Positions 7,316 to 47,986 of a stretch of DNA of 64,000 bases are shown piece by piece; positions within the stretch are counted from its first letter, which is position 1; each line of letters begins with the position of its first letter. The position numbers were made by a program, and so were the translations under genes. This DNA comes from a virus: positions 19,478 through 83,477 of IMG/VR virus record IMGVR_UViG_3300025785_000013. The stretch is one strand, 5' to 3'. The notes under the pieces are model-generated. The model was not told where the DNA came from and searched no databases. It saw only the letters and a program-made list of their open reading frames with translations.

Positions 7316-8543
7316 CGCAGCATCGTCATTGCCACAGCGTCACGTCAACACCATTCCAAAAGGAACTGAGCCATCGTTCCAATGGAATGGCAACGAGGGC
7401 TACATCACCTCACCGCTTCTCCCCAATGAGCCAGACCCGGCGTTTTGGGAAGTCCTTATGCAGGACTGGGGGCTTTCACCAGACACTACGGAAGTCGTAG
7501 ACGGCTCCGTCAATATCCGTGGCTGGGATGCCAATATGGGCCGAGATGCAGACGGTCACCCAACCGTGCATCGAATGAAGTACTACCGAGCGCAGATTCG
7601 CCGTCGCCAAGGTGGTGAACGCTCCATCAACGTGGACACGTTGTGCGAGAAGATTCTGAAGCGCAAGCCACTGAAGTCCGCCCCAAGTGTAAACAGCAAC
7701 CGTGCATTGGTAGTCACTTTTTCCGATTGGCAGACAGGAAAAGGGGAAGGGGGTGGCCCAGATGCAATGACCGAGCGCATCTGCCTCGCCCAAGACCGTG
7801 TGGTGGAACGGGTCAAGGAACTGCGTAAGGCTGGTCGTGCGCCTAGCCATATCTACATTGCTGGAATGGGCGACCTCGTGGAGCAGTGCGACGGTCACTA
7901 CGATATGCAGACTTTCCAAACCGTCCTCACTCGTCGCCAACAGAAGGACTTGGTGGTCTACCTCATTGACCGGATGGTGGAATTGTTGGTAGACAATTTC
8001 CCCGATATCCAAATCATCCTCACTGCCGTTCCGGGCAATCACGGTGAAAACCGCAAGAACGGCAAGGCGTTCACGGACTGGTTGGACAACGACGATTTGG
8101 ATGTTTTCACCTCAACGTACCGTTGTTATCTGAAGAACCCAGAACGCTACGTCAATGTTTCGATGCCCCAGTTCGACGGCCTCGTTCAGGAAGACTTGAC
8201 TATCACCTTGGACATCTGTGGTGTGCCAGTGACGTTCGCTCACGGCCACCAATTTGGAAAGGGCAACGGTGGAGGCACGGTTGCCAAGATTGAGGCGTGG
8301 TGGAAAGGCCAAGTAATGGGTCGCACTCCGGCTGCGGACAGCGCAATCCTCATCTCTGGCCATTATCACCACTTCGTCGCATCTGAAGGCACTGGTCGCC
8401 AAGTGTTCCAATGCCCAGCGATGGATGGTGGTTCTAAGTGGTTTACAAGCCAGACGGGTGCAAACTCCCCTGCTGGAATGTTGACGGTTGGTATCGGACT
8501 TGACTACGGCTCTCGTGGCTGGGGAGATTTACTGATTATCTGA
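7302..8543 (+). CDS. calcineurin-like metallophosphoesterase
   Basis: SDWQ, GDLVE, GNHGE, HGH, GHYHH motifs. Confidence 0.88.
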   Translation: MSLSDAASSLPQRHVNTIPKGTEPSFQWNGNEGYITSPLLPNEPDPAFWEVLMQDWGLSPDTTEVVDGSVNIRGWDANMGRDADGHPTVHRMKYYRAQIRRRQGGERSINVDTLCEKILKRKPLKSAPSVNSNRALVVTFSDWQTGKGEGGGPDAMTERICLAQDRVVERVKELRKAGRAPSHIYIAGMGDLVEQCDGHYDMQTFQTVLTRRQQKDLVVYLIDRMVELLVDNFPDIQIILTAVPGNHGENRKNGKAFTDWLDNDDLDVFTSTYRCYLKNPERYVNVSMPQFDGLVQEDLTITLDICGVPVTFAHGHQFGKGNGGGTVAKIEAWWKGQVMGRTPAADSAILISGHYHHFVASEGTGRQVFQCPAMDGGSKWFTSQTGANSPAGMLTVGIGLDYGSRGWGDLLII

Positions 8544-18892: not shown

Positions 18893-18921
18893 TTGACTTT
18901 GTTCTAACCCTAATGTAAACT
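18893..18921 (+). promoter_or_regulatory. promoter with leaderless start
   Basis: TTGACT-17 nt-TAAACT, then 6 nt to ATG at 18928. Confidence 0.75.
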
Positions 18922-18927
18922 TAGGGT

Positions 18928-19074
18928 ATGAGCAACCTCACAGAAGAACAGCAAGCAGCGATGAACAGATTCGCTCAGGACTTTGCAGCAGTGCTTTTTC
19001 CCATTGTGCGTAGGAAGTACGAGCAAGACCTGAGCAACGGAGCCACCGAAGCCCAGACGATAGGAGAGCAATGA
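18928..19074 (+). CDS. small hypothetical protein (48 aa, MSNLTEEQQAAM...)
   Basis: Own translation; leaderless ATG; ATGA overlap with next gene. Confidence 0.65.
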   Translation: MSNLTEEQQAAMNRFAQDFAAVLFPIVRRKYEQDLSNGATEAQTIGEQ

Positions 19075-40515: not shown

Positions 40516-40721
40516 CGTGCTACCTCAGTTTCTGTCTCAATGCCTTGAAAGGCAAGTTCGGCCATTGCTTCCTTGTCACTCCACACTTGGAAGTGGTGTT
40601 CGTTGGCCTGCTCAAACGAGGCCACGATTCCGGCTGCGATAATGTCAGCCTTGATGAGGTCACCCTTGGCGATTGCCTCACGGATGTTGTGTGCTGCTTC
40701 GATTACCTGAAGTTCCGTCAT
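40512..40721 (-). CDS. hypothetical protein (MTELQVIEAAH...)
   Basis: ATG at 40721 coupled to upstream stop; AAAGGA RBS. Confidence 0.7.
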   Translation of the reverse strand: MTELQVIEAAHNIREAIAKGDLIKADIIAAGIVASFEQANEHHFQVWSDKEAMAELAFQGIETETEVAR

Positions 40722-40879
40722 CAGATGTTCCTTTCTTCCCAAGCGTTGACTGCCATTTCCTCAGCCAACCACTCTGCGTCTTCGTCGGTCATCGCTGCGA
40801 ACAATGCTGCTTCGGCTGCGAATTCCGCTTCGACCTGCTCCTTGATTTCCTGCATCTCTGCTGCTGTGAGTTGTTCCAT
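40721..40879 (-). CDS. small highly acidic protein (52 aa, MEQLTAAEMQEIKEQ...)
   Basis: Own translation; leaderless ATG after promoter. Confidence 0.7.
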   Translation of the reverse strand: MEQLTAAEMQEIKEQVEAEFAAEAALFAAMTDEDAEWLAEEMAVNAWEERNI

Positions 40880-45509: not shown

Positions 45510-45704
45510 ATGACTGATTGGACGCAAGTAGAAACCGACCACCCAGTTTGGATTGAAGGTGAAACCAAGGGCAAGTTCTTCTTCCGTGCCGTCGAAAAGG
45601 ATGGCCGACTGCGAATCACTGGTGGAAACAACATTTTCCGCACCCGGAGCGTTGACCCTGCGCTCGTCACCTTGCGCACGAGCCACCTGCGCCCCAAGAA
45701 GTGA
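45510..45704 (+). CDS. small beta-rich protein
   Basis: GAGGA RBS; weak resemblance to 19418/41324 family. Confidence 0.65.
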   Translation: MTDWTQVETDHPVWIEGETKGKFFFRAVEKDGRLRITGGNNIFRTRSVDPALVTLRTSHLRPKK

Positions 45705-46201
45705 GCGACAAGAAGCGTTGCCGTAAGTGCAACGAGTGGAAGCCCCTGAGCGACTTCACGGAGCGCAGAGACAGGCCGGGAGCCTATTCACCAGCCTGTA
45801 GAGCCTGCGACGGAGCCAAGAAGCGCAGCCAAGCAAATCGGTGGCAGGCAACCCAGCGAGAATCAGCAGTCAAGGCTTCCAAAGTGATGAAGCGCACACC
45901 ACTGAAGCCAGTGAGCGACCATCGCCGTGAGGTCAACGTCGAACGCAAGAAGCGAATGGTGGAAAAGTTTGGCGACCCCCGGACTTGGGAGTGTCGGTTC
46001 TTTGAGTACGCTCCACCGAACGCTGGACTTCCAAAATGCTTCGGTGAAATCCACGGCCACGAACTTCTGAGCCGGGCCAAGGCAGGGCGCACCGACGAGA
46101 ACATCTTGAATATGGAGAACGTCATCACCTTGTGTGACTTCCACAACGGATGGGTCGAAGACAACCCCTTGCTCGCCAAGCAGTACGGCCTAAAACTTTA
46201 G
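45701..46201 (+). CDS. HNH-like nuclease with N-terminal zinc finger
   Basis: KRCRKC..WKPLSDF...CRAC; C...HGHE...R...N...LCDFHN. Confidence 0.7.
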   Translation: MSDKKRCRKCNEWKPLSDFTERRDRPGAYSPACRACDGAKKRSQANRWQATQRESAVKASKVMKRTPLKPVSDHRREVNVERKKRMVEKFGDPRTWECRFFEYAPPNAGLPKCFGEIHGHELLSRAKAGRTDENILNMENVITLCDFHNGWVEDNPLLAKQYGLKL

Positions 46202-46237
46202 GCTTCCAACATCACCAAAAAAAGTTTTGGAAATGAC

Positions 46238-46266
46238 TTGACTTTGTGACACCGGTACTGTACACT
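46238..46266 (+). promoter_or_regulatory. promoter of candidate ncRNA
   Basis: TTGACT-17 nt (TTGTGACA...)-TACACT. Confidence 0.8.
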
Positions 46267-46272
46267 GGTTTA

Positions 46273-46765
46273 TGTAGGGCGAAGTTGGTTCTACGGAGTT
46301 CCTTGAAAACCGATTTGTAGTTTCTAGGGGGTGTGCGGTAGGCCTTGTTGCTTCGGCTAGCACAAACCCAACGTTTGCTTACTCGCACCTCGCCTAGAGA
46401 TTACAAGTCACCATTCGATGGGTGTGGAGAACCACTTTGGGCAACGGGCTTCTAAGGCACCGTTGTGAGGTGGGGCTACCGCTTAGAACGGGAAATCCCA
46501 ATTTGAGTTCTACGCCAAAGAGTGACGAGCGCGAGCAGGCTGGCAGGCTGGGCTTACCCTTCCACTTGGACGCGTGTGGGCGAGCAGGGTGGTTCTGCCA
46601 GACTTATCGAATGAAACCGAGAACTGCGGTGCCATTATCCGGTGCTGTCATACGGGGCGAACCAGCAACATCGGGGAGAACTAAGCAGGCAGACTAAACC
46701 TTCGGGGCTGGGTAGTGAGAGCAGTAAAGCGACGAGCCTCACCTTTGGGTGGGGCTTTCGCCATT
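46273..46765 (+). ncRNA. candidate large structured ncRNA (~490 nt)
   Basis: Between consensus promoter and terminator-like hairpin (46735-46756); long G-U-containing stems; no credible ORF. Confidence 0.65.
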
Positions 46766-46792
46766 TTCCAAACTCGGCTGTAGCATTTTGGT

Positions 46793-47353
46793 GTGACTTC
46801 CATTCCCTGCTCCATCAACCTGCATCCCAGTGAAATCCGAGTGGGGGACACGGGCTACGCCAAGACCAACGGGCAAGTAGGTCGGCTCATCCGCATTGGC
46901 GAGCGCATCAAGTTCCACCACACCACCTACAACCACGTCTTTACGGTGGTCAAGGCTGGCGACACCTACGACAGCATCCTCGTTGTCCAAGCCACTCCAG
47001 TCCACGGCATCATCCTGTCCCGGTTCAGTGAAATCTCCGATGCTGCCGAACTGGTCACGGTGCTGCACCCACCTGTCAACTGCGACCCGACCAAGGTGGC
47101 CGAGTTTGCCAACGACCAACTGGGTGACCCCTATGGCTTGCTCACCATCGCTTGCATTGCGATTGACGTGCTGACCCCTGAGTGGTTTGTGGCGTTCCGT
47201 CGCCCCGGCTCGTGGATTTGTTCAGCACTCGGTGGCGAGGCACTGCGCTTCGGTGGCTTCTACATTGACTTGGGAGATATCTACACCGTCACGCCACAAC
47301 AGTTGTTCGATGCCCATTCAGCAGCACTTGAAAATGTCACACCCCTAAGGTAG
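46793..47353 (+). CDS. permuted papain-like (NlpC/P60, YaeF/YiiX-like) hydrolase
   Basis: GD...YNHV...LGDPYG...WICSAL...VTPQQL (His before Cys). Confidence 0.78.
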   Translation: MTSIPCSINLHPSEIRVGDTGYAKTNGQVGRLIRIGERIKFHHTTYNHVFTVVKAGDTYDSILVVQATPVHGIILSRFSEISDAAELVTVLHPPVNCDPTKVAEFANDQLGDPYGLLTIACIAIDVLTPEWFVAFRRPGSWICSALGGEALRFGGFYIDLGDIYTVTPQQLFDAHSAALENVTPLR

Positions 47354-47362
47354 GATTAGATT

Positions 47363-47986
47363 ATGAACACCAACCCATTCCATCCCGACAACCTTGACCC
47401 CATTGGTAAGGCGTTTACCGCTATCAAGAAGGGCGACCTGCCCGGCCACGAATTTCACGGAAACCAGTGGACAAAGGAAGAGACGGGCGGTACAGCCCCT
47501 AAGCCACTCAACCCCTATTTCCCCAATCTTCCCGACTTTCACGTAGAGCCGGGGAGAAACGGTTCCACCTTCCTCGTGAGGCGAGGGGGAGCAGAAGATG
47601 GCCTTCCCTTCTGGATTAGCAACGGTGAAATCGAAGTTGAACACAACGGAGAGATAAGTTTTCACGCTCAAGGCTCGGACGATGGCAACCACATTGACAC
47701 CACGCTGCGTGCGTCGCCCCAAAAGGTGTTGACGTACACCGATGACTTGAGTACGGACAGAAGGGATTTTCCCGGTCTGAGTTTCTCCACCACTGGCAAA
47801 GAAGAAGCAGATGGAACGCCACACTCCTTGAGTGACCCTATCTACGAGTTGGGAACCGGCAAGCAGGTAGGAACCTACAAGGATGCTGTCGCTAATCTTT
47901 TCGCCGCCAACGGCACTGGCTCGGACCTTGATGCCGACATTGCGAACGGTCATCAAGAGCCCGACTGGTCCTACTACGGCGACTGA
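47363..47986 (+). CDS. GHxFxGNQ-tag protein, acidic cargo of unknown function
   Basis: MNTNPFHPDNL...IKKGDLPGHEFHGNQW; leaderless after TAGGAT. Confidence 0.8.
   Translation: MNTNPFHPDNLDPIGKAFTAIKKGDLPGHEFHGNQWTKEETGGTAPKPLNPYFPNLPDFHVEPGRNGSTFLVRRGGAEDGLPFWISNGEIEVEHNGEISFHAQGSDDGNHIDTTLRASPQKVLTYTDDLSTDRRDFPGLSFSTTGKEEADGTPHSLSDPIYELGTGKQVGTYKDAVANLFAANGTGSDLDADIANGHQEPDWSYYGD

Follow-up and report, generated by a model that had tools for sequence, protein, structure and literature searches.

Structured RNAs are numerous in phages, and almost none of them has a known function. A close counterpart to the element described here is the early promoter Pleft of cluster A mycobacteriophages, which drives an abundant and stable non-coding transcript of ~500 nucleotides (nt); ~90% of the Pleft transcripts end at its 3' edge, the remainder enter the early genes, and the function of the RNA is unknown (PMC5712189). 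Our element lies in a 64,000-nt window (the whole stretch of DNA analysed here), that is bases 19478-83477 of the 83.5-kilobase (kb) IMG/VR record IMGVR_UViG_3300025785_000013, with an estimated completeness of 69%. More specifically, positions 46232-46769 probably constitute a plus-strand non-coding RNA cassette, set within a 591-nt gap that has an HNH-like gene on its 5' side and a gene of 186 amino acids (aa) on its 3' side.

The Pleft RNAs of L5, D29 and StarStuff resemble the cassette in three respects, namely an early promoter of an actinobacteriophage (as proposed for the cassette), ~500 nt without credible open reading frames (ORFs), and co-oriented genes behind them. At their 3' site most, but not all, polymerases stop, and the cassette may share this property through its 3' hairpin. 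The likeness is one of architecture only: a blastn search with the 591-nt gap (46202-46792) against 50,697 phage records gave no match, and the cassette has no sequence similarity to the Pleft RNAs. Unlike Pleft, the cassette is located within a replication/recombination region rather than at the genome end, and it combines an invariant core with an optional domain.

Other systems provide partial parallels. GOLLD and ROOL are large ornate RNAs often carried by phages, and an initial annotation of the window, made from the sequence alone, had pointed to them as precedents; this holds for size (several hundred nt), multibranched shape, phage origin and lack of a known function, but the cassette matches no covariance model, its ornate part is dispensable and no transfer RNA (tRNA) genes are nearby, ARAGORN finding neither tRNA nor transfer-messenger RNA (tmRNA) genes in the 64 kb. 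Lambdoid phages have nut sites upstream of tR1/tR2, and a PR' transcript (6S) that ends at tR'. As proposed for the cassette, these modules consist of a promoter, a short terminated transcript and then an operon; the position of the cassette, which follows the replication genes and precedes a RusA gene, is also reminiscent of the lambdoid nin region. The lambdoid RNA signals differ in being tiny (nut) or not conserved (6S leader), and no N- or Q-like gene was identified in this phage. The HEARO/IscB omega RNA is an HNH-associated RNA and, like the cassette, a structured RNA beside a gene with an HNH motif. Here, however, Rfam gives no match, the HNH protein (166 aa) has no RuvC part, the RNA is downstream of the HNH gene (the HEARO RNA is upstream), and no variable guide segment is present. 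Finally, the core of the cassette is the same kind of object, from the same data source, as the DNAVirus_N candidates mined from IMG/VR, which are conserved intergenic phage RNAs of 29-151 nt (8,495 models); this catalogue may already include the core (PMC10690425).

Within the reach of Rfam and of our searches, the cassette is a new RNA element of phages, and it is built from modules. The initial annotation had centred on the multibranched part. These ~300 nt are not the essence of the RNA, as they are entirely missing from the type represented by the loci L008 and L025, in which ~190 nt suffice. The evolutionarily conserved part is 46615-46728, a segment which that annotation had left undescribed.

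Within this segment, 46621-46725 aligns gap-free among the variants, and its three helices P1-P3 (Table 1) keep 21 of 21 pairs in all six sequences (6/6), with 7 pairs varying on one side and 1 on both sides. Enclosed by these helices, the inner core (46644-46706) is identical to L008 at 62/63 positions and to L018 at 62/63 positions (98%), compared with 74-82% overall for the flanking genes; more specifically, the HNH gene is identical to that of L008 at 403/489 positions, and the 186-aa gene at 421/542 positions in L008 and at 396/533 in L018. The helices around the inner core have diverged in L018, with 18/23 identical positions in the 5' strands of P1/P2 and 15/19 in the 3' strands of P2/P1. 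P2 of L018 carries 3+3 substitutions and nevertheless retains 11/11 pairs, which has a chance of 0.002 under an equal number of random substitutions. Because the block of identity ends at helices that diverged with compensation, the identity of the inner core argues for purifying selection and not for recent transfer. The constant module of the element is the ~105-nt core together with the 3' hairpin, rather than the multibranched part.

In protein-anchored and pattern scans, all carriers of the element belong to one small clade of phage contigs from freshwater. The pattern scan recovered 8 viral contigs from IMG/VR besides the window's own record and 7 metagenome contigs from JGI, in part the same DNA, and no carrier among 185,579 species genomes. 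Two further pattern scans returned the same contigs plus one additional locus (L032), which on reading turned out to be a chance match and was rejected as a carrier. A scan with a word of the optional domain matched 4 contigs, all previously recovered, and a profile search with the HNH protein found no new carrier, the loci L042 and L043 being without a match to the RNA. Altogether, 26 core-bearing loci were fetched and reduced to 7 distinct sequences with five architectures; the contigs of 4 DNA runs yielded only variants already recovered.

Type A, of ~490 nt, is found in the window and in the L012 group. Type B (L007/L022) is built as type A, except that the 70-nt apex of the long stem (46319-46388) is swapped for 171 other bases; the same swap is found in one contig of run X14, and both forms occur among the contigs of one DNA run. 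In type C (L008, L025; ~190 nt), promoter, 5' hairpin, core and 3' hairpin are kept and 46314-46614 is missing, as it also is from L014, L028 and L029. Type E (L019) has a different hairpin and a different downstream gene. The 3' hairpin is conserved in types A-D, and the stretch GTTCCTTGAAAAC in types A-C, being missing from D and E. Read by eye, type D (L018) shows a degenerate partial second copy of the core ahead of the same 3' hairpin: the ~130 nt between core and hairpin (L018:3700-3830) resemble a degenerate partial core plus hairpin, which suggests a tandem duplication.

The ornate part is thus present in only two of the five architectures. Since the sister phages of type C are without 46314-46614, we interpret these ~300 nt as an optional insertion in the loop of a small hairpin (P0); it separates two ACCGA words that directly adjoin each other in type C (L008). 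Two mobile-element explanations for the insertion were rejected. Group I introns characteristically follow a 5' exon that ends in U and themselves end in G; Rfam shows no match to them here, and the junctions relative to L008 have A/G before the insert and A at its end. As for a transposon, terminal inverted repeats are missing from the insertion, and so is a target duplication, since the ACCGA words are already adjacent in L008.

Substitutions within the optional part were compared with type B. The basal 17 base pairs (bp) of the long stem differ from L022 by 4+5 substitutions, and 16/17 pairs are kept (chance 0.0013), three of them having been altered on both sides. In the multibranched domain, 11 of the 14 substitutions relative to L022 fall at paired positions; 8 of these keep the pair, among them those at pair 46537/46567, which is altered on both sides, and 3 break it. 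The L012/X15 type differs from the window at two positions, by a C>T change at 46565, turning a predicted G-C pair into G-U, and by a C>A change at 46653, one of only two variable positions of the inner core.

The structure of the RNA was taken from the minimum free energy (MFE) fold of 46270-46770, and z scores were computed against dinucleotide shuffles. On the plus strand, the whole RNA reaches a z score of -3.67 with 0/100 shuffles as good, compared with -1.42 and 11/100 on the minus strand, in agreement with the RNA-level structure on the plus strand that had been proposed. All features named by the initial annotation are present at the positions it gave: its long-range stems and inner hairpins recur in the MFE fold, with low z scores for the long stem and for the multibranched domain, and its terminal hairpin is indeed strong (Table 1). 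At the site of the 5' hairpin, L008 and L022 read GUAAG/CUUAC, with one pair altered on both sides. The 'boxA-like' stretch behind this hairpin may resemble the E. coli consensus; an actinobacterial consensus was not found in the literature.

Table 1. Coordinates of the RNA cassette, its parts and the two flanking genes (positions in the window).
Feature	Position	Strand	Basis and details
HNH-like endonuclease gene, 166 aa	45701..46201	+	PHROG: endonuclease VII 9.9e-9, HNH 1.2e-3
Promoter (predicted)	46232..46266	+	extended motif 46232-46253; -35 TTGACT 46238-43; 17-nt spacer; -10 TACACT 46261-66
5'-terminal hairpin GUAGGGC/GUUCUAC	46274..46294	+	MFE; pairs 46274-80/46288-94; z -3.29
GTTCCTTGAAAAC, 'boxA-like' stretch	46298..46310	+	5' strand of hairpin P0
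P0	46302-05/46618-21	+	CUUG with CGAG; optional domain in its loop
Long irregular G-U-rich stem	46312..46409	+	z -5.61; pairs 46312-28/46393-409, 46329-31/46389-91, 46333-37/46384-88, 46338-43/46377-82
Optional ~300-nt expansion (long stem and multibranched domain)	46314..46614	+	missing from L008, L025, L014, L028 and L029
Multibranched domain, closed by two stems, with four branches inside	46412..46613	+	-92 kcal/mol, z -5.39; closing stems 46412-23/46602-13, 46428-39/46585-96; inner hairpins 46441-47/46460-66, 46484-89/46507-12
Conserved core, ~105 nt	46621..46725	+	alignments A2, A3; helices P1-P3
P1	46623-27/46721-25	+
P2	46633-43/46707-17	+	11 bp, 5 G-U
P3	46645-49/46688-92	+
Inner core, 63 nt	46644..46706	+	near-invariant alignment columns; three CGGGG runs, little predicted pairing
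3' hairpin (46729-46761) and short U-rich tail	46729..46769	+	-23.6 kcal/mol, z -4.92; pairs 46734-43/46748-57, extension 46729-32/46758-61
186-aa gene, first in co-oriented gene run	46793..47353	+	ORF list, relatives

The consensus promoter that the initial annotation had placed ahead of the RNA stands at 9 of 12 consensus positions in the promoter scan (TTGACT-17-TACACT, 46238-46266); promoter-like sites in 3 kb number 2, against 0.8 expected. It also belongs to a motif family of the phage. A 22-nt word around its -35 has 6 matches in the genome at up to 6 mismatches, 5 of which show a TTGAC(T/A) -35 and a -10-like hexamer 17 nt on. These five promoters, at 18893-18927 (+), 40225 (-), 40920 (-) and 46232 (+) of the window and at G000:C1:18975 (-), have in common an extended -35 region, CTTGACTTTGTGACA(C/A)C. 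Two of the copies are followed exactly 7 nt past the -10 by ATG ORFs (18928..19074, +, and 40721..40879, -), which are predicted to be leaderless messages, and the fifth copy, just outside the window, precedes an ordinary gene with a ribosome-binding site. With hexamers spaced by 17 nt, within the 16-18 nt usual for this type, and genes starting behind its copies, the motif is of the sigma-70 type (sigma-A type), and from its sequence the cassette promoter is predicted to be of the phage's own consensus type. Given the same 7-nt spacing as at the leaderless ORFs, the RNA would start at 46273/46274, where the 5' hairpin begins. Within the extended -35 region of the family, we also noticed a short palindrome, TGT-N-ACA, that could be an operator.

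Searches against known families agree with the earlier view that no family can be assigned by eye. At gathering thresholds, the sole match of Rfam 15 in the whole window is a Pistol ribozyme at 1844-1905. Relaxing the threshold to E<=10 for 46000-47000 gave two chance-level matches (15.2 bits vs 114 and 10.9 vs 40), and the loci L008, L018, L019 and L022 gave two more of that level at E<=5. The families without a match include GOLLD, ROOL, HEARO, raiA, OLE, group I intron, 6S and tmRNA, and none of the known riboswitch or ribozyme models in Rfam matches the region. We also compared the core by eye with signal recognition particle RNA, a kink-turn, a tetraloop receptor, CRISPR repeats and a G-quadruplex, without a convincing fit to any of them. 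The region had further been described as free of credible ORFs, and this was upheld for the ORF named there, 46422..46697, which we rejected as a gene for want of a coding signal: it has no Pfam and no PHROG match, its codon changes relative to L022 are 5 synonymous and 10 non-synonymous (4/5/6 over the codon positions), and most of it is missing from L008-type relatives.

We consider it likely that the cassette is a real, selected RNA-level element. As to its function, we tentatively favour, at slightly less than an even chance, a stable trans-acting RNA with a leaky terminator, because the layout matches that of Pleft in cluster A mycobacteriophages. On this analogy, the phage-type promoter would start an untranslated ~490-nt RNA at ~46273, with the 5' hairpin first and the strong hairpin (46729-61) last, and the RNA would be produced together with other genes of the same promoter type. 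The 3' hairpin with its weak U tail may function as a leaky terminator, at which most transcripts would end and accumulate as a stable, early-expressed RNA; read-through transcripts would be the messenger RNA of the gene run that begins with the 186-aa gene. P1, P2 and P3 would hold a 63-nt, G-rich and mostly unpaired segment, the invariant core being the surface to which a conserved partner binds, whether a protein of host or phage or another RNA, and the ornate part being an accessory expansion. Should the analogy be true, a stable early non-coding RNA with a leaky terminator would be general in actinobacteriophages and not the peculiarity of one cluster. With its short near-invariant core, its versions with and without the domain, its natural deletions and truncations, and its defined promoter and 3' hairpin, the element makes a clean test case. 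It also holds a lesson for annotation, in that conservation lies outside the ornate domain that first catches the eye.

Several observations weigh against a stable, independently transcribed RNA of this kind. The 23 sequencing runs listed included no RNA run with the stretch; that the RNA is transcribed, where it ends, how abundant and stable it is, how efficiently it terminates and whether it has a partner are therefore matters of inference. The family is small, with only 7 sequence variants. Type D has no promoter of its own, and the 5' half of its core is overlapped by a zinc-ribbon ORF of 56 aa; type E likewise lacks its own promoter, and all that is left of its core are the inner 62 nt with the 3' strands of P2 and P1. 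One relative with an HNH protein 88% identical (L013) is without the cassette, which is hence dispensable. Taken by itself, the core is no more stable than its shuffles (z +0.65), and the type C RNA (L008, 195 nt) has z scores of -0.29 on the plus and -0.07 on the minus strand, leaving no thermodynamic signal without the optional domain; the thermodynamic signal of the RNA derives from the optional part. Compensatory changes of the kind expected of such an RNA are seen in P2 and in the long stem, but covariation is not significant in a shuffle control of the 7-sequence alignment, where 113/500 shuffles reach the paired share and 131/500 the count of double changes; the basis for covariation is essentially one divergent sequence per helix. 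In the phage genome, no complementary match of at least 12 nt to the RNA was found outside the locus, the best core-versus-genome duplex (-51.1) does not exceed those of four shuffled cores (-51.6 to -54.8), and no partner or complementary target for the core was found. Finally, the 3' hairpin is missing from the output of the terminator scan, as the 8 nt behind it contain no more than 4 U; terminators of actinobacteria are often without U tracts.

The main rival to a stable trans-acting RNA is a cis-acting leader, in which promoter 46238 serves the downstream operon, and core and hairpin form an attenuator, an antitermination site (nut, put, EAR) or a riboswitch that sets read-through into 46793 and onward. 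Such a leader would fit a plus strand on which the motif search finds no further copy of the extended promoter motif after 46232, and no promoter was found between the 3' hairpin and gene 46793 or elsewhere as this gene's own; the promoter scan shows a weaker promoter-like site at 47328-56, 5' of the next gene (47363). It would also fit the co-orientation of the element with the following gene in 5/5 architectures, the position of types D and E inside an operon without their own promoter, the conservation of the pyrimidine-rich 46298-46310 in types A-C, and a hairpin whose weak U tail suits a partial stop. However, core and hairpin are 4 nt apart in types A-C, ~130 nt in D and ~50 nt in E, where the hairpin is a different one, and therefore no expression platform is conserved. 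The sole alternative pairing with the 5' strand of the hairpin, as read from the sequence, amounts to 5 bp, the downstream genes differ (186 aa, 163 aa and 108 aa), and an accessory domain of 300-470 nt would be unusual for an attenuator. We therefore regard a leader as rather unlikely, and a riboswitch class in particular was rejected on spacing, alternative pairing and downstream genes, despite the conserved core.

Other readings of the conservation are less probable. It seems unlikely that a new RNA class has its active centre in the inner core, between the clamping helices P1-P3, with the ornate domain as a peripheral scaffold added by some lineages; such an RNA might cleave itself, sense a ligand or work with the neighbouring small HNH nuclease, whose N-terminal domain is conserved across two nuclease types. 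Distinctly unlikely, in our view, is a catalytic or ligand-binding RNA (self-cleaving ribozyme or aptamer) whose flanking helices only hold its shape: 63 practically invariant nt clamped by covarying helices would suit it, as would a Pistol ribozyme directly behind another promoter of the same phage and a possible pseudoknot of CGGGG (46653-57) with CUUCG (46700-04), but this pseudoknot never covaries, the L012 type cannot form the first of its pairs, and no known ribozyme or riboswitch model matches. Conservation at the level of DNA, as a replication origin, a protein-binding array or a gene-conversion patch around an HNH homing endonuclease, we hold to be very unlikely. The element does adjoin the HNH gene and the genes for the replication initiator and a G39P-like loader, its three CGGGG words are ~20 and ~30 bp apart, and the region is rich in indels, with a partial duplicate in L018 and a truncation in L019. 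Yet the P2 changes on the two sides of the core compensate, which would be unexpected for DNA binding, and G-U pairs function on one strand only. Moreover, the window and L019 have an identical core but initiators with different N-terminal DNA-binding parts, for which reason an origin with iterons was rejected, and HNH genes beside identical cores are only 34-41% identical, so that there is no co-conversion tract. Hardly credible is a short Cys-rich peptide encoded by the core, in a frame that runs to the TAA at 46682-84; in L008 it starts with an ATG and gives 28 aa, and in L018 it makes up the end of the 56-aa ORF. This frame is open in all variants, 4/9 substitutions in its 5' part are silent in the alignment, and the L018 ORF matches the HNH zinc ribbon weakly (6.2e-4); against this, the window has no start codon at the homologous position, the 3/9 substitutions at third positions are the chance share, third positions are invariant over ~15 codons, the invariance runs 22 nt past the stop, and changes 3' of the stop compensate those within the frame. 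Short frames over the core are thus unlikely to be coding.

The surroundings of the cassette are those of a tailed phage, the window encoding a major head protein, a tape measure and a major tail protein, in addition to a Sak4-like annealing protein, a replication initiator, a G39P-like helicase loader, RusA and a helicase. The cassette is placed in the replication/recombination region, adjoining the initiator and loader genes. In L013, the DNA found just 5' of the 186-aa gene in the window (46771-46791) comes 15 nt after the stop of the HNH gene.

A link of homologs of the RNA with the HNH gene, which had been raised as a speculation, is matched by position: the HNH gene precedes the element in 4/4 architectures with upstream DNA. 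It is nevertheless unproven, because the carriers are related by synteny and some HNH homologs occur without the RNA (L013, and L015-L017 at ~50% identity). The HNH-like protein has no Pfam match. Among relatives (alignment A4), its N-terminal zinc-ribbon part is conserved and its nuclease part is of two types: in the window (45701-46201), L018:2992-3471 and L019:7726-8196 (-), a zinc-ribbon N-terminus of ~65 aa is nearly identical and is followed by two different nuclease parts, which looks like a domain swap inside one gene slot.

Behind the HNH gene of the second type stands a small zinc-ribbon ORF with the pattern CxxC...F.RPPSQV...YCSxxC (L018:3484-3654; L019 ~7655-7720, -). It shows a weak match to the C-terminal part of an HNH family (6.2e-4), enters the RNA core in L018 and, in L019, is cut by the core after PPSQVK. 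The genes 3' of the element in types D (L018:3885-4376) and E (L019:7159-7485, -) have a common N-terminal motif, D.LLA....YPV.K, and the type D gene also has a GNQ(H/W)T motif like that of the window gene 47363-47986.

The host of the phage is probably an actinobacterium, because an Rpf-type domain occurs together with leaderless starts. The domain, an Rpf-type transglycosylase (PF06737, 48.8 bits), is in a 197-aa open frame outside the window (L033; G000:C1:17569-17772, -), and in a control with 14 genomes Corynebacterium alone was positive for it. A search for prophages with the major head protein in species genomes found none.

At the other end of the window, the Pistol ribozyme (RF02679; 1905-1844 on the minus strand, 50.5 bits vs 34.5 at gathering) begins ~7 nt past the inferred start of a promoter, TTGACA-17-TATACT (1947-1919, minus). 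This promoter is directed opposite to the flanking genes, within a gap of ~360 nt, and the Pistol unit is a second promoter-driven non-coding unit of the same phage.

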